64,000 bases of DNA from a bacterium. Its GTDB lineage: Bacteria > Patescibacteriota > Minisyncoccia > Phycocordibacterales > UBA9973. The stretch covers positions 337-64,336 of the forward strand of contig JBAXSP010000004.1 of assembly GCA_037130655.1 (NCBI GenBank), in the 5' to 3' direction. The notes under the pieces were generated by a model, which was given only the letters and a program-made list of their open reading frames with translations, had not been told where the DNA came from and did not search any database. The position numbers and the translations under genes are program-made. Shown piece by piece: positions 1,647-62,560 of the stretch (position 1 is its first letter; each line of letters begins with the position of its first letter).

Positions 1647-4600
1647 TTATTTCTTTTCTTCTTTTGGTTTTCCTCCACTTTCTATTTTTTCTTTATTTTC
1701 TTTGATTTTTGTTTTGTTTGAATCAATTTGAGTAGTCAATGTCTCTTTTTGTCGAGAGAAATTTTTTCTATCAGATGAAACGCTTCCCAAGAATTTCATT
1801 CGAGAACGAATCTTATCGAGTTCTTTCTTATCTACTGTTCCGCTCTGTTCTTTTTGATACAATTCGTCTCGTAATGTTTCATTTTGTTCGAAGACATAAT
1901 CTTCTACTGTTGTAGTAATCATATCTTGCAACTGTTTCTCTTTTCGAATAATATTCTTAGCCATTTCTTCAGCTGATTTCTTTGCCTTCTTCTTCTCGTC
2001 ATCACTCAGTTCCGTGAAATTAGCAGCTTGTTTATCAGCATCAGTCATGTCAACAAACTTACCAGTTGCTGCGTCTCGTTTTTTACCAAGCTTCTTATTG
2101 ATTTCATCCTCTTCAGTAAGAATTGCTTTCTTTTCATCAACAATTTTCTTATATTCTTCATTGTTTGCTTTGAGGTCATCGATTTTATCTTTCAACGGCT
2201 TAAGTTCTGCGTTATTTTCTATCAAACCAGTATTTCTTGCCAATGCGCTTTCTGCTGCAGTAACTCTTCTTTCATTCTCTTTATTGGCGCGTTCAAGATC
2301 CTCATTTTGATTTTGAAGCTTAACTGCATCAGCCTTGGCTTTTTCACTTTGTTTTGCGTATTTCTCTTTGATATCTTTGTTAATACGATTATCAGCAACA
2401 GCACTTCCTAAAAGAGAAGCACCTACTACAGCACCGACACCTGTACCAACCAAAGCACTTCCTGCAACCGAGCCTGAAAAACGACCTGCACCACCAACAA
2501 CACCCGCAGCAACAACCCCTTGTGTAGCCCTGTCATTATCTTTTGACCTACCAATAAAGCTGGTTGCCTTATTGAGCACAGATCCGGTAACAGAGAAGTC
2601 GTCAAATCTTGTATCGAGACGTGCCAATAGTTTTTCAAGGCGATCATCTTCGACTTTTTTACGCATAGCTTTGATATCTTCTGGTTTTGCATCTTTACCA
2701 AGCTCTTCAAATCGCTTGCCATATTTTGCTTCGTGTTTTTTCTTGAATTCTTCTTCAAATTTCTTTTTCTCGTCGTCTGTTTTTGCTGCATAATTTGCTG
2801 CAATTTTTTCTTTTTCAATTTTATCTTTATATATTGTTTCGTACTTTTCAACCTGATTATCATGCATTTCTTTAAACTGAGTATCTGTGACATGTGATAT
2901 TTTTGATTGTCGCTCGATTTCTTTTTCCTTCTTTTCTTGTCGTTCTTTTTGATATGTAGCAAATCCTGTTTTATTTGCATCAAGACCAACGGCCCCCATA
3001 GAAAGACCGGCACCTCCAAGAAATGCATTTGTAGTTTTACCACTCATATCGAAACCTGATACCTTACTAAAACCACCTGACACCGCATTAAATCCTTTTG
3101 TATTTCTTACATCAAAAGAACCGTCTTTTGCTTTGTCAAAAGTTTTGAGACCAAGTTTTGCAAATTTACCACTAATACCACCTTTTGCTTCGGCCGCAGC
3201 CAATCGTTCAGCAAGCTTTGCTCCTGTCCCACTTGTTGCTGCAGCACCAAGTGTATTTCTTCCTATTAAAGCAGCTCCGCCAGTTGCCGCACCGAGAGCA
3301 ACACCACCAACAACACCTGCGGCTTGTGTAATTTTCCCTGCCAACTCCTTTGCAACTGATCCAGCCAAACTTACCGCAGTATCTTTTGCTTTTCCAAGCA
3401 TCACGATAATGAATATAAATGGCATGACAACTCCTAATATCCAAGAAGTGTTTGATTCGCCTGACTCCTTCAAAAGAGGTGCTCCGATTTGCACAAACAA
3501 CAATATCAAATACATAAACACCATAAAAATAGGTGCCATCATTGCTATCTTAAATGTCTCTTTCAACCAAGAATCAAATGAAATACCTCCCATTTTCCAC
3601 CCTTTTGGAAGAATATTAGAAACAAAAGCAAGTGGAGAAGTGATTGTCTGCACCCAAAGACCAATGACTCGTCCAACAAATAATATTCCTATCTTGAAGA
3701 AAATACCTGCACCAATCACATTAAGAATAACTGCGCAGATAGTAATGAGAATAAATGTAGTATTATCCAAATCACCACCACTACTAGCCTCGTTTCTTCC
3801 TGCATTTTTTGAATTTACATCATCATAAAGCTTGTCTTTTCCTTCGAGTACAATACGCTGTGGGTCGAAACCAGAAACAATCACCTCCGACATTCCATGA
3901 GCAACAGTTCGCTCGCCAGTACTTCTATCTATTTTGGTTATAGCGATTGTGTCTGAGTTATAAAACAACCTGGCCGTCACGTTCCCTGTATCAATAATAA
4001 TTCGAGTCAAGAAAAAACTAAAATTAATCGTAACCGCAGCAATAATAATCGGTATAATCATTTTTTTCCAATCAACACCACCTGTCTCAAGTAATGTACC
4101 GATTGCGATGTACATCATCATTACAATAAAAGCTATATTACAAAGATCACGCACAAGTGCCCACGCCTTTTGAACAAACTGCGATGAATTATCATAAGAA
4201 GAACTTTGAATCGAGTAGTCGAAAGTAAAATCAAACAACATACCCGCAACCATAAAGAGCCAAGATGTTGGTACATATAAAACATAATAGAGTAACTGCG
4301 CAAAACAACCTGACATCGAAATACCATCTGAAACACCCAGCCAGCATCTTGGCATACTTTCATCCGGATCAAGTGCACCTGCTTCACCTGACTGCTCAAG
4401 TGTGCCATTTGTCAATCCAATAGTTCCTTCTGCTTTATAATTAGCACCCCCAACCTGATCACTACCACCAGTCTTAAAAGTCATATTCTTAATAACATCA
4501 CCTCCTAGACCTTTATTAATTAATACTAATTGGGCAACATAATCAGTACCACTACCCAATCCCTCTATACGAAAAGATCCTTTTGTTTCAATATTTTGTG

Positions 4601-10544: not shown

Positions 10545-10913
10545 TTATCTGCTTACATTAAATCTTTTTGGTGCAATTGACCATGAAGGGACAAATGCGC
10601 CTGTTTCCGTGTTGTAACATGTATTGTAATCAATACTGTATCTACCTAAAATTTGTTGTCCTGCCCGAAGTGTTTTACTTGATTCAGAAACAAAAAATGG
10701 TAAGATTATAAATTTTGAACCGATCGGAGCAATGGTCATTGGTCCGTATTGAGCACCGCACGCAACCTGACTTTCAGCAGTGTTATTGAGTTGTCGAATT
10801 TTCCCACCAAAATTAAACGATGGACCGATAGCAAATGTATTTGTAGCAAAAGAAAATCCGAGCGCAACAAATACACTCAAAAATAATAACGAACGAATTT
10901 TAGAGTGACTCAT
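10545..10913 (-). CDS. Small secreted hypothetical protein
   Basis: 122 aa with a signal peptide (LLFLSVFVALGFSFATNTFA). Its start abuts the ksgA stop. Confidence 0.45.
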   Translation of the reverse strand: MSHSKIRSLLFLSVFVALGFSFATNTFAIGPSFNFGGKIRQLNNTAESQVACGAQYGPMTIAPIGSKFIILPFFVSESSKTLRAGQQILGRYSIDYNTCYNTETGAFVPSWSIAPKRFNVSR

Positions 10914-11830
10914 TACTTCAGTATACTAGAGCGCGACAAAGCCAACCACTCTTTTATGTGCAAATCTTCGGCGCGGATGTTTGAGGGAATTTTCGATTCC
11001 TCAAACATCCGCGCAATCACCTCACTTTGTATTCCACCTTCCTTCAAATTATGCGCCAATGTCTTTCGTTTGTGACCAAAACCAAGATGAATTAATTCAA
11101 AAAAAGCTTTTTCTTCTTTGGTATTCTTAAAATTACTACGAGAAATGTTTGAAATCGACAAAATAGCCGAATCAACCTTTGGTGCTGGCACAAATGAGCC
11201 TGCTTTCACAACATCGACGAGTTTTGGTTCACCAAAAGCTTTGATTGAAATAGAAAGAAGTGAACCTTTCTCGTCACGAGCAACCGCACGCTCAGCAACT
11301 TCTTTTTGCACCAAAACAACGATTTTACTTGGCTGAACCACTTCTTCGAGGAATTTCCGGACGATTGCACCTGTTATATAGTAGGGAATGTTTGCGATTA
11401 ATTTGTATGTGATTACGTCCGAAGTTTTCTCGATGGTCTGTTTTTTCAAAGGTCCTGCGGAGGCGGGTAGCCGAGCACGAGCCGATTTTTCACCAGAAAA
11501 ATACGGCGTACCTTTGAAAAAGCAGGACCATTCTAACATTGCGTTCTTAATTGGAATTTCTAATATATCTCCCTCAATAAGTAATAGTTGTTTATTTTCA
11601 AGCTCTTTCGAAAATTTTTCACGTAACAAAGGTATCAATTCACGGTCTTTTTCAATTGCCACGACTTTTGCACCAGTTTTGAGTAAACTTTCAGTCAAAA
11701 TACCGGTTCCAGGACCGATTTCAAGCACCGTATCAGTTTTTTTGAGCTCTCCGGCTTCGACAATCTGTCTGACCGCCTTTTCTGACTTCAAAAAATTCTG
11801 CCCGAGGGATTTTTTAGCTTTGTATTCCAT
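10913..11830 (-). CDS. rsmA: 16S rRNA (adenine1518-N6/adenine1519-N6)-dimethyltransferase RsmA/KsgA, carrying a ~40-aa in-frame insertion
   Basis: Diagnostic N-terminal KKSLGQNFL motif, SAM-binding LEIGPGTGILT, and NIPYYIT (the E. coli NLPYNIS equivalent). About 37-40 extra residues (AMLEWSCFFKGTPYFSGEKSARARLPASAGPLKKQTIEKTSDVIT) lie between the EGDIL and NIPY motifs. Confidence 0.9.
   Translation of the reverse strand: MEYKAKKSLGQNFLKSEKAVRQIVEAGELKKTDTVLEIGPGTGILTESLLKTGAKVVAIEKDRELIPLLREKFSKELENKQLLLIEGDILEIPIKNAMLEWSCFFKGTPYFSGEKSARARLPASAGPLKKQTIEKTSDVITYKLIANIPYYITGAIVRKFLEEVVQPSKIVVLVQKEVAERAVARDEKGSLLSISIKAFGEPKLVDVVKAGSFVPAPKVDSAILSISNISRSNFKNTKEEKAFFELIHLGFGHKRKTLAHNLKEGGIQSEVIARMFEESKIPSNIRAEDLHIKEWLALSRSSILK
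11434..11530. mobile_element. MITE-like palindromic element (TTTTTCACCAGAAAAA-core family, copy A) inserted in frame inside ksgA
   Basis: Terminal inverted repeats tggtctgttttttcaaaggtcc / ggtacctttgaaaaagcaggacca flank a core gcggaggcgggtagccgagcacgagccgaTTTTTCACCAGAAAAAta. The core is shared with the copies at 43604, 51863 and 62320. Confidence 0.55.
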
Positions 11831-23429: not shown

Positions 23430-23674
23430 AGAAGGTCATTGGTGGTGAAAAATCGCCATATATAGCATTGAGCCATATAATAAAAAGAGTATAGTTGCCA
23501 CTAGAATGAAAAAATATTTCAGACCATTTTTAACAATCACCCCTTCGGTGTTAGCTTCTTCTAAATTTGTCATAATACTAATTGATTTGCTCCATTTCAA
23601 TTATGCGCTTATGCAAAACTTTTGCAAGACGACAATCACATCTCCATTGTGCGACACTACGCTATAATAGAAAC

Positions 23675-24589
23675 ATGTACGATCTCGCTCAACTCAAACG
23701 CCAGTTTCTCGAACACGTTGAAATAGAAAAAGGGCAGAGTCTCAAAACGGTCGAAAATTATGACCGCTACCTTACTCGATTCCTCGCTTTTGCCAAGGTC
23801 ACCGACCCCAAAGATATTACCGATGATATTGTTCGTGAATTTCGTCTTTTTCTCAACAGACAAACTGGAATGAAGGTTCGCGGTCAATCTGCCGCCACCA
23901 TGAAGCGCAACACACAAAACTACTATCTTATTGCGCTTCGTGCATTTCTTCGTTATCTCATGAAAAGAAATGTCACTTCCCTGCCACCCGATCGTATTGA
24001 GCTCGCAAAGATCAAAGAGCGTCACTTAGACTTGATGACGACAGCAGAACTACACCGCCTCCTTGAAGCACCAGACAAAACAACATCTGTTGGACTTCGT
24101 GACAAAGCAATCCTTGAATTATTTTTCTCCACCGGACTTCGTCTTTCCGAACTCTGTTCACTCAATAGTGATTTAGATTTATCACGAGATGATTTTTCTA
24201 TTCGCGGAAAAGGTGAGAAAGTTCGTGTTGTCTTTTTGTCTGAAGAAGCAAAGCTTGCTATTCGTGAATATTTGAAATCTCGCAAAGATATGAATGAGGC
24301 ATTGTTTGTGCAAATTTCAAAAAACAATATCGGTACTGGCCGTCTGACCCAACGTTCAATCGAGCGCATTGTTCGTCATTACGCAACCAAAGCCGGTATT
24401 TCAAAAAAAGTTACTCCACACGTTATTCGTCACTCATTCGCCACCGACCTCCTTTCCAACGGTGCAGATATTCGTAGTGTGCAGATGATGTTGGGTCACG
24501 CAAACATTGCAACAACACAGATTTATACCCACGTGACCGATGCACAACTGAGAGATGTTCATAAGAAATTTCACAGCAAAAGAAAATAA
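23675..24589 (+). CDS. Tyrosine site-specific recombinase, XerC/XerD family
   Basis: N-terminal SAM-like domain. C-terminal catalytic residues ...LGLRLSEL..., HVIRHSFATDLLSNGADIRSVQMMLGHANIATTQIYTHV (R-H-R-Y). The start was set at MYDLAQLKRQF. Confidence 0.85.
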   Translation: MYDLAQLKRQFLEHVEIEKGQSLKTVENYDRYLTRFLAFAKVTDPKDITDDIVREFRLFLNRQTGMKVRGQSAATMKRNTQNYYLIALRAFLRYLMKRNVTSLPPDRIELAKIKERHLDLMTTAELHRLLEAPDKTTSVGLRDKAILELFFSTGLRLSELCSLNSDLDLSRDDFSIRGKGEKVRVVFLSEEAKLAIREYLKSRKDMNEALFVQISKNNIGTGRLTQRSIERIVRHYATKAGISKKVTPHVIRHSFATDLLSNGADIRSVQMMLGHANIATTQIYTHVTDAQLRDVHKKFHSKRK

Positions 24590-27213: not shown

Positions 27214-28764
27214 TTATTTCACTCCATGCTTCTTTCGCAACTTCCCTACTTCCTCCCCTTCCAACTCCTCTTTTTTTTCTTTCGCCTTCTCCCCTAGTTC
27301 TTTCAATGTTACGTCATCCATTTGTTCGTATTCCTTTACTCGCTCTGTCAGTGTTTCAATGGTGTTTTTACTTGGATCATCCAGCACTTCTTCGAGTAAT
27401 GCATTCAACATCCAGCCCATGCGTGGTCCGGCTTTGATTTGCAGATCATTCATCAAGTAATTCCCGTCTATTGCCAGCTGTTTCACCGAAATCGGATCAC
27501 GCAGACACTCTTCGATCATTGCATGATATTTACGCAAACGGTACGGGGCTTCAGTCTTACTCATTCCTACTCGGTCACATTCGCGCACCTGCATCAACTC
27601 CCAGATATGATCAACACCAACATTTGCCACCACTCTACGTACAGCAGAGAGTGTAATTTGTTCTGTATCAGAGAAAAACATATGCCGACGCACCATATTT
27701 GTTACATACACAACTGTTTCCCGTGAAAACTTCATTCTATCCAATATTTTTTGAGTCATTTTTGCCCCGACGACTTCGTGTCCATAAAAGGTTGGTTTTA
27801 CCTTAGCGCTTGGCGTTCTTTTTGTTCGTGGTTTTCCAATATCGTGAAAAAGCGCTGAAAGACGGATATCAGTCGAATATCCTTTGTCAGCAGCGTGTTG
27901 TACAGCACCCAGAAGATGCTCGAATACATCATAGATGTGAGCCCCACCTTGGTGACAACCGATTCCCTCTTCAAGTTCAGGGATAATGTATGTAAGTAAT
28001 CCCAATTTCTGCAGCAAAGCAATTCCTTGTGCAGGACGTGGACTTTCGATTATTTTGACAAACTCATCTCGAATTCGTTCTTGTGAGATGTTTTCTATCA
28101 ACTGTGCATGTTCAGCAATTGCCGCCAATGTCTCCCCTTCAATAGCAAAATCCAAGACTGTGGAAAACCTCACGGCACGTAACATACGCAAAGCATCTTC
28201 AGAAAATCGTTCTATCGGACTTCCGACCGTTTTGATTATTTTGTCTTTTATATCGGACTGTCCGTTATAAAGGTCAAGTATTGTGTCCTTTTCTATACTA
28301 TAGGCCATAGCATTGACCGTAAAATCACGACGTCCGAGATCTTCTGAAACGTTTCTTGTGTAACAAACTTCATCTGGATGACGATTATCACTATATTTAC
28401 CTTCCTTACGGAAAGGTGTGACTTCTACCATATAGTATTCCGTTTCATCTGAAACGATAGTATTTGTGTCACGTGAAACGTTTTTATCTAGATTTATAGG
28501 CGTTTCTTGTGTAACAATAGGAATACAGACACCAACAGTACCGAAAGTGTTCTCATAAACCGTCTTCTCAAAGAGTCCTTGAATCTCCTCAGGAGTAGCG
28601 CTTGTTGTTAGATCCCAGTCTTTGACATCTCTACCTAAAAACATATCTCGGACACAGCCACCAACAACAAAAGCCTCAAAACCAGCATTTTCGAGTTTTT
28701 GTGTTACATATGTAACATAAGAGGGAATTAGTTCTTTGTTTATTTTTTTAGGCGTTTGTTGCAT
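27214..28764 (-). CDS. cca: CCA tRNA nucleotidyltransferase (polyA-polymerase head domain + HD domain)
   Basis: VVGGCVRDMFLGRDVKDWDLTTSATPEE nucleotidyltransferase motif, RDFTVNAMAY, and an HD domain (LSALFHDIGKP). Confidence 0.85.
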   Translation of the reverse strand: MQQTPKKINKELIPSYVTYVTQKLENAGFEAFVVGGCVRDMFLGRDVKDWDLTTSATPEEIQGLFEKTVYENTFGTVGVCIPIVTQETPINLDKNVSRDTNTIVSDETEYYMVEVTPFRKEGKYSDNRHPDEVCYTRNVSEDLGRRDFTVNAMAYSIEKDTILDLYNGQSDIKDKIIKTVGSPIERFSEDALRMLRAVRFSTVLDFAIEGETLAAIAEHAQLIENISQERIRDEFVKIIESPRPAQGIALLQKLGLLTYIIPELEEGIGCHQGGAHIYDVFEHLLGAVQHAADKGYSTDIRLSALFHDIGKPRTKRTPSAKVKPTFYGHEVVGAKMTQKILDRMKFSRETVVYVTNMVRRHMFFSDTEQITLSAVRRVVANVGVDHIWELMQVRECDRVGMSKTEAPYRLRKYHAMIEECLRDPISVKQLAIDGNYLMNDLQIKAGPRMGWMLNALLEEVLDDPSKNTIETLTERVKEYEQMDDVTLKELGEKAKEKKEELEGEEVGKLRKKHGVK

Positions 28765-28947
28765 ACAAACAATTTTGTGCGGGGTAGGAGAATCGTTCCT
28801 TACAGGAACAGTACCCTAATTGGCTGTTTTGTTTCGCATTGCTCCACAAAACAGCTCAATCAGGCTTCGATTCTTTGCTCGTGTTTCATAAGAAACACTT
28901 GCGCTTACCCCACACAATAACTAAGGAAATATACAGTATTTTTATTG

Positions 28948-29018
28948 TGCGGGGTAGGAGAATCGAACTCCTGTCTCATCCTTGGCAAGGACGCATTCTA
29001 CCACTAAACCAACCTCGC
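28948..29018 (-). tRNA. tRNA-Gly (anticodon GCC)
   Basis: The reverse complement folds as a cloverleaf. Anticodon loop CCTTGCCAAGG, T-arm AGGAGTTCGATTCTCCT, and acceptor GCGAGGT/ACCCCGC with one A:C mismatch. Confidence 0.7.
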
Positions 29019-29089: not shown

Positions 29090-29161
29090 GCACTTGTGGT
29101 GAAATGGATATCACAGCGGTCTTCGGAACCGTTATTCTGGGTTCGAGTCCTGGCAGGTGCA
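29090..29161 (+). tRNA. tRNA-Arg (anticodon TCG)
   Basis: Acceptor GCACTTG/CAGGTGC, D-arm GTGAAATGGATATCAC, anticodon loop CTTCGGA, T-loop GGGTTCGAGTCC. Confidence 0.7.
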
Positions 29162-29348
29162 CAAAAAAAACGTAGTTTTTCCTGTCTCCGCAAGTGTTTT
29201 CCTTAGAAAACACGAGGACGGACTCGAAAAGCTTTTGTAGTAGATTTCGGGCACCATAAAGAAATCTACTCAAAAGCTGTACTGTTCCTGTAAGGAACGA
29301 GTCCTGGCAGGTGCACCAAATAGTAAGTTTACTTATAAGTCCTTAATA

Positions 29349-30654: not shown

Positions 30655-30711
30655 GACTTCCCGCACATAAGAAAAACCCTCAATATTGAGGGTTTTTCTT
30701 ATGTGCGGGAT
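30655..30711 (-). terminator. Long perfect hairpin (24-bp stem) formed by the tRNA-Gly(TCC) 3' trailer folding back onto the tRNA acceptor/T-stem 3' strand
   Basis: cccgcacataagaaaaaccctcaa-tatt-gagggtttttcttatgtgcggg. The right arm is the tRNA 3' end itself. Confidence 0.6.
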
Positions 30712-43593: not shown

Positions 43594-43603
43594 AACTCTT
43601 CTC

Positions 43604-43697
43604 AGTTGTAATTTTTTAAGAACACAGATATTTTTCTGGTGAAAAATTCCTTTGCTCGCCTACCCGGCTGCGCAAGTTTCTTAAAAAATTACAACTC
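43604..43697. mobile_element. MITE-like element, TTTTTCACCAGAAAAA-core family (copy B)
   Basis: 19-bp TIR agttgtaattttttaagaa / ttcttaaaaaattacaact. The core (rc) is gcgcagccgggtaggcgagcaaaggaaTTTTTCACCAGAAAAAta. Confidence 0.55.
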
Positions 43698-44131
43698 TAA
43701 AATATTTTGAAAAAATAAAAACTTCCGAATATCGGAAGTTTTTATTATAGAAAAAAGCTCGAATCTCCAAACAATCCTTGTGTTAATAAAAAAACAAGTA
43801 GTCAGATTGCAAAGGATAGCCCCAGCAGACGGTAAACCGTAACCAAGACGTCCTCTTTAAAATAACTTGAGCGTAAGCCGATTGCTTAGAGATTTGAGCC
43901 TTCTTTTGATATACTAGAAAAAATAGTATATACCATATTTTTAACCTGAAAACAGTTTAACATATTATACTTTTTTTGTCAACTACCTTGTTATAAAATC
44001 GTTATATATCAAATAAATGTAAGGATTTTCAGATGTAGATGAAATTCGATGAAAAAATGAGTATTCGAGCGAGATGTATAAATTATACATTGAGTGAGAA
44101 ACGGAATTTTTGAAGAAGAAGTTCGCTACAT

Positions 44132-51772: not shown

Positions 51773-51862
51773 ATTTAAATTATAAAAAATAAATAATTAT
51801 TTTTTATAAAAATATATAAACTATTATTTAAAATAATTGCAATTTTTTTTCATGGAATGAAG

Positions 51863-51955
51863 GTGTGTTTTTCAGTAGACTCTGCGCAGACTGACGAGTC
51901 GAGCAAAGTAATTTTTCACCAGAAAAATATACGTGTCTACTGAAAAACAGCACCT
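51863..51955. mobile_element. MITE-like element, TTTTTCACCAGAAAAA-core family (copy C), flanked by an 8-bp direct duplication
   Basis: TIR gtgtgtttttcagtagac / gtctactgaaaaacagcac. Core gcgcagactgacgagtcgagcaaagtaaTTTTTCACCAGAAAAAta. Flanking direct repeats gaatgaag at 51855-51862 and 51956-51963. Confidence 0.6.
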
Positions 51956-52022
51956 GAATGAAGACTTGACAAACATATTGTATTGTGATACAATCTTGTT
52001 AGAAATCAAATAATATACAAAA

Positions 52023-62192: not shown

Positions 62193-62460
62193 ACAGATAA
62201 ATTATACAGGAATCGATCACAGATTACTAAAGCTATTTGTTTCGGTGGGAATCCCTCCTTACAGGGGCAGTAAACTTACAGTTTCTGTACACCTTTTGGA
62301 TATTTTTTCATAGGAATCGATCACAAGTATTTTTCACCAGAAAAATCTCGCGACCCCGCCTCGCCTATTTTTCGGGTGAAAAATTAGGGCTCCGGCTTTC
62401 GATTCCTACACGCAAAGCAAAATTGTTTGCTTCGCTCGAGGGGACACAAAAATAAAAACT
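62193..62460. repeat. Repeat-rich region next to tRNA-Lys: a 14-bp direct repeat pair around an 86-bp insert, a double TTTTTCACCAGAAAAA / TTTTTCGGGTGAAAAA palindrome (MITE-family copy D), and an inverted, interrupted copy of the tRNA-Lys 3' end
   Basis: aggaatcgatcaca at 62204-62217 and 62304-62317. 62323-62385 tttttcaccagaaaaatctcgcgaccccgcctcgcctatttttcgggtgaaaaa. 62397-62445 ggctttcgattcctac[acgcaaagcaaaattgtttgcttcgct]cgaggggac matches the tRNA-Lys T-loop-to-acceptor sequence on the opposite strand. Confidence 0.5.
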
Positions 62461-62487
62461 GCACAAATTGTGCAGTTTTTATTTTTG

Positions 62488-62560
62488 TCCCCTCGGTAGG
62501 AATCGAACCTACGACCATCTCCTTAAAAGGGAGCTGCTCTACCGACTGAGCTACGAGGGG
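62488..62560 (-). tRNA. tRNA-Lys (anticodon TTT)
   Basis: Perfect acceptor CCCCTCG/CGAGGGG, D-arm GCTCAGTCGGTAGAGC, anticodon loop CTTTTAA, T-arm TAGGTTCGATTCCTA. An unusual C at position 1. Confidence 0.7.

Follow-up and report, generated by a model that had tools for sequence, protein, structure and literature searches.

Why should a tRNA gene be followed by broken pieces of its own 3′ end? The question is raised by the tRNA-Lys(TTT) gene near the right-hand end of a 64,000-nucleotide stretch of a Patescibacteriota genome (contig JBAXSP010000004.1, positions 337 to 64,336), which was analysed as a whole and will be referred to as the window. The original prediction described an inverted and interrupted copy of the T-arm and acceptor 3′ end beside this gene, together with a double palindrome and a pair of 14-bp direct repeats. 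Our analysis demonstrated that these repeats are not a one-off but one degenerate example of a large family of small structured units found behind tRNA genes, and that the tRNA-Lys locus is a stack of at least three such units, of which the proximal one (class II) is intact and the two distal ones are eroded fragments. The parts of the stack are listed from the gene outwards; DR1 and DR2 denote the gene-side and the downstream direct copy of the tRNA 3′ end, invA and invT its inverted copies, and P2, P4 and P5 hairpins that recur in the family.

62488-62560, minus strand: tRNA-Lys(TTT) gene (ARAGORN; Rfam tRNA 71.5 bits), whose last ~21 nt, T54 to A73 plus C (DR1), are copied elsewhere in the locus
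62446-62488: palindrome ACAAAAATAAAAACTGCACAA / TTGTGCAGTTTTTATTTTTGT, 21-nt arms, 100% complementary (repeat search)
62437-62445, minus strand: invA, inverted acceptor 3′ strand with discriminator and C (plus-strand text CGAGGGGAC; repeat search)
62410-62436, minus strand: P2 hairpin (minus strand AGCGAAGCAAACAATTTTGCTTTGCGT) with A...CGT flanks, a conserved family module
62398-62409, minus strand: invT, exact inverted copy of T54-C65 (plus-strand text TTCGATTCCTAC), a 12-nt block of nearly every family member
62321-62397, minus strand: class II three-way-junction module, i.e. GAAAGCCGGAGCC, hairpin, GGCGAGGCGGGGTCGCGAG, hairpin, ACTTGTGA (the double palindrome)
62311-62320, minus strand: cut-off direct tRNA copy TCGATTCCTA, T55-A64, closing the proximal class II unit
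62254-62310, minus strand: class I module remnant with the 3′ strand of P4 (ATATCCAAAAGGTGTAC), a 17-nt tandem duplication, a TTTACTG junction and P5 (CCCC-TGTAA-GGAG)
62242-62253, minus strand: degenerate direct copy GATTCCCACCGA, closing the class I remnant
62208-62221, minus strand: third junction TGTGA/TCGATTCCT (slash, junction) after TTAGTAATC, a class II-type tail with a 9-nt T loop/stem copy

The last 21 nt of tRNA-Lys were found as an exact inverted copy on the plus strand, in two pieces (TTCGATTCCTAC, 62398-62409, and CGAGGGGAC, 62437-62445) with the 27-nt hairpin 62410-62436 as spacer between them; unsplit, this 21-mer occurs nowhere in the window but in the gene, even with up to 3 mismatches allowed. 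The 9-mer TCGATTCCT is present six times in the window versus 0.42 expected, an excess reached in none of 100 shuffles, with four of the six copies located within 62208-62506, and CGAGGGGAC is present twice versus 0.06 expected. The inverted, interrupted copy is thus real and far above chance. The double palindrome is likewise present (62329-62346 and 62367-62384, 18 nt each, 94% complementary), and so is the direct-repeat pair (AGGAATCGATCACA at 62208-62221 and 62312-62325), except that 90 nt, not 86, lie between its copies (104 nt from start to start). The 14-mer itself holds the reverse complement of the T-loop/T-stem (TCGATTCCT). Two further repeats had been overlooked, namely the degenerate copy GATTCCCACCGA at 62242-62253, which is identical to G57-A68 at 11 of 12 positions, and the perfect palindrome with 21-nt arms at 62446-62488, directly 3′ of the gene. 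From its A-run, stem and T-run anatomy this palindrome looks like a bidirectional terminator; a simple terminator scan left it unflagged. It forms the tip of a long hairpin that consists of the tRNA-Lys 3′ end and its inverted copy.

On the minus strand the gene and the palindrome are followed by invA, P2, invT, the class II module and the 10-nt copy, then by the 3′ half of a class I unit with its 12-nt degenerate copy, and finally by the class II-type tail with its 9-nt copy. This arrangement supports the earlier view of a hotspot with several nested or stacked units, but some of the parts have to be interpreted differently. The 27-nt hairpin, originally taken for an insert that had interrupted the tRNA copy, is rather P2, a conserved covarying hairpin that is a regular part of many units; in other loci it occupies the equal position with the consensus AGCAAGCAAAC-NNNN-TTTGCTTGCGT, and at tRNA-Lys it contains a G.U pair on the minus strand that becomes an A.C mismatch on the plus strand. 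Similarly, the 14-bp repeats do not represent a target duplication around an 86-bp insert but the junctions TGTGA/TCGATTCCT at the right-hand ends of two class II-type units; the third junction of the locus is similar to the end TTAGTAACTCGTGA/CCGAAT of another family member (L035). The presumed core of a MITE (a miniature transposable element with inverted repeats) is the class II module. The double palindrome, whose halves enclose ctcgcgaccccgcctcgcc, is the core of class II as read from the other strand; only the hairpin ATTTTTCACCAGAAAAAT is shared with three MITE-like copies of the window that are not beside tRNAs.

Folding of 62306-62446 yielded -54.7 kcal/mol (z -5.1) for the minus strand and -44.6 kcal/mol for the plus strand. 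A covariance model of class I (R1) matched 62242-62409 with 26.7 bits and E = 8e-5 (a rough value, as for all E-values of this home-made model), with 113 nt inserted in P4 and with invT (62398-62409) pairing with the distal copy 62242-62253. Within the class I remnant, the 17-nt tandem duplication (62258-62291, CTTACAGGGGCAGTAAA / CTTACAGTTTCTGTACA, 71% identical) doubles the P5 region, and the P5 motif itself is matched at 62256-62271.

A similar arrangement at other tRNA loci was found in the window and, by a motif scan, in at least 120 loci. The covariance model yielded exactly three matches in the window, at tRNA-Gly(GCC), tRNA-Arg(TCG) and tRNA-Lys. The motif ACTGNNCCTGTAAGGA is present three times versus 0.16 expected, the third copy being that of the Lys locus. 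Two complete units and a simpler palindrome accompany the other tRNA genes:

28775-28947, minus strand: complete class I unit 3′ of tRNA-Gly(GCC) (28948-29018), R1 73.3 bits, fold z -8.7
29162-29316, plus strand: complete class I unit 3′ of tRNA-Arg(TCG) (29090-29161), R1 72.2 bits, fold z -6.0
30659-30710: loopless perfect palindrome, arms of 26 nt (TCCCGCACATAAGAAAAACCCTCAAT / ATTGAGGGTTTTTCTTATGTGCGGGA), including the last 8 nt of tRNA-Gly(TCC)

The tRNA-Gly(GCC) unit consists of spacer, invA (28905-28916), P2, invT (28866-28877), P4, GTACTG, P5 and a 21-nt direct copy (28775-28795), and the tRNA-Arg(TCG) unit ends in a 19-nt direct copy (29298-29316) that is followed by CCA. Both direct copies are exact from C56 to the tRNA end, both units hold inverted copies too, and in each invT is followed by ~52 nt that end in GTACTG-TTCC-TGTAA-GGAA-C. 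At tRNA-Gly(TCC), only an inverted copy of the acceptor is present, the terminator stem taking in the tRNA end; the palindrome is without P2, invT or module and could represent either a precursor or a remnant of the hairpin found in complete units. Together with the Lys locus, four of the five tRNA genes of the window thus each lie near a partial copy of the respective 3′ end, as had been claimed; for tRNA-Pro(TGG), no such copy was found.

The gene next to the tRNA-Gly(GCC) unit (27214-28764, minus strand) encodes a CCA-adding enzyme with PolyA_pol head, RNA-binding, HD and tRNA_NucTran2_2 domains. It starts 12 nt past the distal tRNA-Gly copy 28775-28795 on the same strand, so that a mimic of a tRNA end lacking CCA is located in its 5′ leader. 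In another locus (L043), an ortholog of this gene directly follows tRNA-Arg with no unit between them.

The wider family (loci numbered L) was gathered by scanning contigs from one genome per species with one motif, TACTGNNCCTGTAAGGANNGANTC of P5; all counts from this collection refer to the matches listed, and proportions and frequencies are biased by the use of a single motif. The at least 120 loci belong almost all to Patescibacteria, including Saccharibacteria, Paceibacteria/Parcubacteria and many named candidate groups, although the taxonomy labels of metagenome-assembled genomes (MAGs) may include mis-binned contigs (for example L040, L057 and L061). An upstream tRNA gene on the same strand, typically 90-145 nt away, was present for 97 motif occurrences, covering 18 amino-acid specificities. 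In all 97, DR2 begins at C56/G57 and continues as the 3′ part of that very tRNA; in class II units, the junction likewise lies immediately 5′ of C56. This position, directly before C56-G57-A58, recurs at three tRNAs of the window and at about 90 other loci. The junction sequence is GGTTC/GANTC, and the inverted block ends in ...GANTCGAA followed by R. On the tRNA-sense strand, a full unit reads tRNA, terminator-like spacer, invA, P2, invT, three-way-junction module and DR2 (from C56), with 17-24 nt of the tRNA end duplicated.

The repeats differ in their state. DR2 reaches the tRNA end (G57 to N73) with at most one mismatch in 41 of 85 units, and elsewhere 5-13 nt survive, whereas the upstream tRNA gene is always intact; it is therefore the distal copy that can be dispensed with. 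DR2 commonly ends in CA(A) and may extend up to 6 nt into the trailer. In the genes, too, both in these loci and in the window, the discriminator is mostly followed by CA(A) (CAA after 35 of 85 gene copies), and CCA is encoded in 6 of 85 only. In nearly every unit a 12-nt invT is found, always ending in TCGAA, or in TCGGA where the tRNA has TCCGA, so that the inverted copy follows rare T loops too. The ~11-nt invA, which includes ~3 nt of the trailer, occurs in many units at a distance of 22-26 nt upstream of invT, and P2 lies in the interval; the stems of P2 are wholly different between units yet paired, and its A...CGT flanks are conserved. In nine units with a full DR2 but differing trailers, the inverted copy matches the gene-side trailer at 24 of 27 nt and the distal one at 11 of 27, and the palindrome often runs unbroken through trailer and terminator-like hairpin with arms of 24-29 nt. 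These findings indicate that the tRNA 3′ end, the spacer and the inverted copy form one hairpin, and that the distal repeat is a separate relic. The fetched loci also contained 126 tRNA genes without a downstream P5 motif, which were neighbours of the tRNA that had brought each locus in and had not been selected for; in 25 of them the 3′ end was still repeated downstream as an exact inverted copy, which argues that the family is broader than the P5 motif.

Two classes of module were distinguished. In class I, a junction AAR is followed by P4, a long hairpin with a covarying lower stem and an internal tandem G.A, then by GUACUG and by P5 with its UGUAA loop and stems that covary fully (e.g. CUCC/GGAG, GUCC/GGAC, CCGC/GCGG, ACCG/CGGU). 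Class II carries the signature GAGGCGGGGUCG and is ordered RGCCGGAGC, hairpin, GCGAGGCGGGGUCG, hairpin and YGUGAY, followed by the tRNA copy from C56; its core was found 3′ of tRNAs in L001 (twice), L028, L029, L106 and L108, and beside a tRNA remnant or none in L055 and L124; the genes that it follows in other genomes are those of tRNA-Cys, Leu, Ser and Val. In an alignment of 65 class I cores, 88.5% of cells were paired compared to 67.5% in column shuffles, and 302 cells showed double changes compared to 108 (0 of 500 shuffles); sliding the partners removed the signal. Conservation in class I thus concerns structure and not sequence. The tRNA-sense strand gives the more stable P4 in 68 of 76 units (p = 7.5e-12), its G.U pairs numbering 61 versus 31, and the G.U pairs of P2 are distributed 8 versus 0 between the strands. 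This bias indicates that the functional form is a single strand of tRNA polarity, either RNA or DNA. Such strand-specific conservation of the stems was unforeseen by the earlier recombination model, and it keeps alive the reading of the units as RNA genes.

Units are frequently accumulated at one site. L112 and L095 contain exact tandem units, units that differ in type or state are stacked at tRNA-Lys of the window and in L043, L079 and L125, and orphan units with a decayed tRNA also exist. In L046 (6432-6740), a class I P4-P5 behind tRNA-Pro breaks off at ...TGTAAGG and continues in TTCAAGTCCTCTCTCGCGCACA. This is the 3′ end of a different tRNA and brings its own matching invA, P2 and invT; a second, near-identical P4-P5 and the tRNA-Pro repeat follow. 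The two P4-P5 differ by a compensatory base-pair change, and one unit is thus nested in another. In L051 (717-4440), a normal class I unit at tRNA-Glu and a second P4-P5, whose tRNA-Glu 3′ copy is identical, enclose a 3.7-kb island of five small open reading frames (ORFs; one KilA-N, the others small unknowns); a Fic/HTH gene is found just beyond the island. This second module is preceded by an inverted partial P5/P4.

Comparison with relatives at the syntenic tRNA-Lys/SpoU locus showed that the element is present in some and absent in others: L123 carries a class I unit and L125 a class II-like array, and only a plain hairpin or terminator is present in L129 and L121. The SpoU neighbour protein of the tRNA-Lys gene had no exact match on record. 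In L067 and L119, tRNA and unit are 90-100% identical amid flanks that cannot be aligned. A tRNA-Glu(CTC) and a tRNA-Glu(TTC) of one MAG (JBBRPW; L099, 3660-4010, and L107, 2791-3141) share 99% identity including their class I units; the identical block spans tRNA position +1 to the end of DR2, and the sequences are unrelated outside. The differences are one base in the tRNA body, the anticodon, the discriminator and one base of P4, and CCA is found after the L107 copy but not on the gene side.

How did the units come to lie there? We favour, at about an even chance, the explanation that they are miniature insertion cassettes without a recombinase of their own, which enter the T loop of a tRNA gene and bring a replacement 3′ end. 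This reading is based on the constant T-loop junction, the intact gene with its decaying distal repeat, the gene-side hairpin, the position of the intact unit nearest to the gene in stacks, and the presence or absence of units among relatives. The conservation of structure, the near-identity of tRNA and unit amid unrelated flanks and the L051 island count in its favour as well. A cassette would comprise a substitute for the tRNA 3′ end, reaching from C56 to the discriminator with about CA added, together with a short terminator-like spacer, an inverted copy of this segment (invA and invT, usually with P2, a bulged hairpin, between them) that forms one long hairpin with it, and a conserved three-way-junction module of class I or II. 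It would enter immediately 5′ of C56, the gene being kept intact by the new 3′ end of the cassette; the old 3′ end would be moved to the far side as the downstream direct repeat, where it would be free to decay. Newer cassettes would enter beside the gene, and older ones would be shifted outwards and erode. Since units differ between the tRNA species of one genome, a cassette needs to have the 3′ end that fits its target from the outset. Tentatively, and by likeness to the attC sites of integrons and the attP site of CTXphi, recombination may involve a folded single strand. The hairpin of replacement end and inverted copy would then present a double-stranded mimic of the target, which a trans-acting recombinase could exchange with the chromosomal T-loop site, and the three-way-junction module might serve as the variable, strand-selecting tip. 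Recurrent site-specific recombination at T loops, as originally proposed, is consistent with the constant junction, the arrays and the presence or absence of units in relatives; as no recombinase was found, we can only infer it.

Several observations weigh against the insertion of cassettes. No integrase, transposase or reverse transcriptase (RT) was found in or beside any unit inspected, the L051 island included. The sole tyrosine recombinase found in the window (23582-24589, plus strand; Phage_integrase 5e-44 and an N-terminal SAM-like domain) has an ordinary Xer-type look, is located 38 kb from the Lys locus and far from all three tRNA loci, and nothing ties it to the units. A search of 2.9 million viral contigs detected no true copy of a unit. 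Close strains yielded no empty/filled pair, as the relatives obtained from metagenomes have only 42-55% protein identity. Within one genome, the units of different tRNAs fall short of near-identity, so that no recent jumping from tRNA to tRNA was seen, and within the window the Gly(GCC) and Arg(TCG) units differ in their P4 subtype. The bias of the single-motif collection also has to be considered here. Finally, the tandem G.A motifs, the G.U pairs and the conservation from Saccharibacteria to Paceibacteria suit a functional RNA at least equally well.

The strongest competitor is a host-beneficial structured RNA gene linked to the tRNA, which we consider rather doubtful. It would be transcribed with the tRNA or just after it and act on the cognate tRNA or pre-tRNA, with the inverted copies paired to the 3′-terminal tRNA copy as helices P1 and P3 next to P2 and a three-way junction, via its 23-nt antisense or as a mimic of the tRNA end; 3′ processing, quality control or titration, and cis-regulation of the next gene are possible roles. 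The covariation and strand-specific stability, the tandem G.A and the UGUAA and GUACUG motifs typical of RNA, and the several G.U pairs of the class II helix are in line with such a gene, as is its retention across classes of Patescibacteria in streamlined genomes; in L067/L119 the element is as conserved as the tRNA itself, the L112 units lie between co-oriented tRNAs with no space for other signals, and the Gly(GCC) unit of the window ends 12 nt before the gene for the CCA-adding enzyme. On the other hand, its occurrence is sporadic, since 101 of the 126 tRNAs without P5 motif had no downstream inverted copy and the orthologous Lys loci L129 and L121 are without a unit, and eroded, stacked, nested or orphaned units are numerous. 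About half of the units have a truncated 3′ tRNA copy, so that P1 cannot form, and a terminator-like hairpin is often placed between tRNA and unit. P1 and P3 showed no clear asymmetry between G.U and A.C (36 versus 25 and 26 versus 17), and the genes downstream of units are oriented 40 on the same strand versus 22 on the opposite one. A mimic that can be aminoacylated is disfavoured by the one Ala-linked unit with scorable invA (L103), where A instead of G stands opposite U70 and the G3.U70 identity pair is therefore missing. A bolder version holds that the units are genes, or mobile genes, for a new class of tRNA-coupled structured RNAs in which a 23-nt antisense and a copy of the 3′ end are mounted on a three-way-junction scaffold, a possibility to which we attach only tentative belief; such a programmable RNA could guide processing or quality control, or could be guide and template of an RNA-directed insertion that is re-targeted via its tRNA-derived arms.

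Movement through RNA by retro-homing, as with short interspersed elements (SINEs) or R2, appears improbable. According to this explanation a transcript would be processed at its tRNA-like ends, CCA would be added, and a trans-acting RT would produce a cDNA with tRNA positions 56-76 at both ends that recombines with a naive tRNA gene. RTs of diversity-generating retroelements (DGRs) and group II introns are said to be common in the candidate phyla radiation (CPR). The tRNA-Glu block of L099/L107, from tRNA +1 to the end of DR2 and with CCA after the L107 copy only, would fit, but gene conversion between the paralogous Glu genes yields the same pattern. CCA follows DR2 in 6 of 41 units versus the gene copy in 1 of 41, a weak excess of about p = 0.05 by our own estimate, and most DR2 copies end in CA(A), not CCA. 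Short forms without invA and P2 could be 5′ truncations, and the RNA-type structural features apply here likewise; the repeat, however, extends up to 6 nt into the genomic trailer, which points to DNA or a precursor as the source rather than to the mature tRNA, and no RT is adjacent to the units. We regard it as very unlikely that the arrangement arose without function, either by template switching of replication at T-arm and terminator hairpins (a tandem inversion duplication) or as attL/attR scars left where prophages or islands were deleted. Template switching could produce the direct-inverted-direct order, which turns around at the terminator loop and within the T loop, and the acceptor-inclusive palindrome of tRNA-Gly(TCC) without a module, and elements with a tyrosine integrase do leave tRNA 3′-end repeats that start in the T loop. 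Neither process explains the conserved, covarying P2, P4, P5 and class II modules at fixed positions across hundreds of loci that are independent of one another, nor 90-100% conservation amid saturated flanks; no integrase remnants were found, and the trailer of DR2 is usually unlike that of the gene, with which a fresh triplication would share it. Both are largely refuted by the conservation of the modules.

The units resemble several known systems in part, among them integrons. As in attC, an imperfect, bulged palindrome of ~60-140 nt with a variable, branched tip is conserved on the folded strand in structure rather than sequence, and folding is strand-specific; the units here combine conserved structure, variable sequence and strand preference in the same way. 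As in integron cassettes, an inverse core lies upstream and a core downstream, and the cassettes, ORF-less or with cargo, stand head-to-tail beside one fixed entry site with the newest nearest. Unlike in integrons, the entry site is a tRNA T loop and not attI, the paired arms are tRNA-derived (12 + 11 nt), and the unit restores the end of an essential gene. The integron core sites follow R′ GTTRRRY and R″ RYYYAAC; the core found here is GTTCGAN, with C at the first R position. No recombinase ORF, and hence no IntI-type integrase gene with attI, was found beside any array read. A CTXphi-type integrative mobile element exploiting Xer (IMEX) also lacks a recombinase, forms tandem arrays at its site and carries, at one end and ~60-100 nt away from the direct copy of the target, a second copy in inverted orientation, so that its single strand folds as a mimic of the target. 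The units carry such a second, inverted copy as invT in nearly all cases and as invA in many, both matching the gene-side copy and its trailer. In contrast to the attP(+) hairpin of CTXphi, which host XerCD recombines at dif, the target here is a tRNA gene, the units of 100-170 nt contain no genes, and nothing points to Xer involvement or a phage stage.

Insertion in the T loop, delivery of a replacement 3′ end, persistence of the displaced end as a direct repeat and the build-up of remnant arrays are shared with tRNA-integrating islands, prophages, satellites and tycheposons. A direct repeat that starts in the T loop beside an intact gene is indeed found in the units (at most one mismatch in the 41 of 85 mentioned above), but they encode no integrase or other ORF, and the L051 island contributes KilA-N only. 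They are also roughly a hundredfold smaller, have the extra inverted copy and the three-way-junction modules, and occur at roughly a fifth or more of tRNA genes, compared to one or two islands per genome. Like MITEs and Rickettsia palindromic elements, the units are short, non-coding, hairpin-rich and multi-copy; unlike in MITEs, conserved terminal inverted repeats are missing, the pairing arms come from the target and change from one tRNA to the next, and the flanking duplication comprises 17-24 nt of a specific gene (typically ~20 nt) instead of a short fixed target-site duplication. Site-specific retroelements such as R2 and the Neurospora retroplasmid (with its tRNA-containing cDNA) resemble them in residence at a conserved RNA gene, target sequence at the transcript ends, tRNA-like 3′ ends and duplicated tRNA segments at junctions, but here neither RT nor endonuclease is encoded, CCA is rare and evidence of target-primed synthesis was not seen.

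Further identities were examined and rejected. Rfam 15 returned only tRNA at gathering score in the window, and scans of both regions at E <= 10 gave hairpin noise; the families covered include hammerhead, twister, pistol, hatchet, HDV-like, group I/II, HEARO, tmRNA and Y RNA. A hammerhead was also rejected by hand, as the junction strands are AAR / GUACUG / C instead of CUGANGA / GAA / H and come in another order. Introns of group I or II can be dismissed because the last base is C, A or U and not G, GUGYG is missing and the units are far too small, and H/ACA or C/D guides because there is neither an unpaired target base nor a lower stem, and CUGA appears only when N = A. An aminoacylatable minihelix was rejected on L103. 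A tRNA pseudogene or tandem duplicate does not fit, as there was no second tRNA call and the inverted block covers the T-loop complement and trailer, unlike a duplicated 5′ strand. An autonomous copy of the element was not recognized either: wide gaps between tRNA and motif contain ordinary genes (L094), the recombinase-less island of L051, or tandem and nested units. Full-text searches of the literature found no description of the cassette arrangement.

A phage or plasmid origin was rejected as well, since the exact P5 motif was found in none of the 2.9 million viral contigs and a looser motif in 12, of which 11 were chance; the single model match among them (L148) lies inside an ORF. The class II core gave more than 120 mostly chance matches in GC-rich phages, with L156 alone being real and located among cellular genes. 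This contig (IMG/VR 3300033463_005745) carries at 2900-3319 a tandem class II array consisting of GGCAAATCCCTCCCTCTCCG, terminator palindrome, invA, P2, invT and module. By the look of their sequences, its neighbours encode a serine acetyltransferase, a UDP-glucose 4-epimerase, a cytidine deaminase and a GDSL lipase; the contig may be mis-called or represent host flank, and its G+C content is seemingly above that of the window.

If the cassette reading is true, a substantial share of the tRNA genes of Patescibacteria carry small structured cassettes that are not annotated, which would explain the stray tRNA 3′ fragments and long palindromes of these genomes. They would represent a natural insertion system that spares an essential target by bringing a spare part, and would point to a trans-acting recombinase or RT in organisms with genomes of ~1 Mb. 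Arms copied from the target on a constant scaffold would make the system modular, as with integrons, bridge RNAs and guide RNAs, and the question why T loops are insertion hotspots would become testable in a minimal setting. If the units are host RNAs instead, they would constitute a new, widespread non-coding RNA linked to tRNAs.

The MITE-like copies of the window, which share the hairpin ATTTTTCACCAGAAAAAT (five occurrences versus 0.25 expected) and a GCCGG..GGCGAG flavour with the class II module, were found at 11436-11532 (plus strand), 43598-43700 (minus strand) and 51858-51956 (plus strand). They are ~95-100 nt long, none lies beside a tRNA, and they consist of a long closing stem with T and A runs and two hairpins, yielding three-way-junction folds with z -5 to -9. 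The copy at 11436-11532 is located in frame within the rsmA/ksgA gene for the 16S rRNA dimethyltransferase (10913-11830, minus strand). The alignment of RsmA with B. subtilis KsgA covers residues 4-99 and 135-300, the 35-residue insertion between them (EWSCFFKGTPYFSGEKSARARLPASAGPLKKQTIEK) being the MITE-like element, which resembles in this respect the in-frame Rickettsia palindromic elements.

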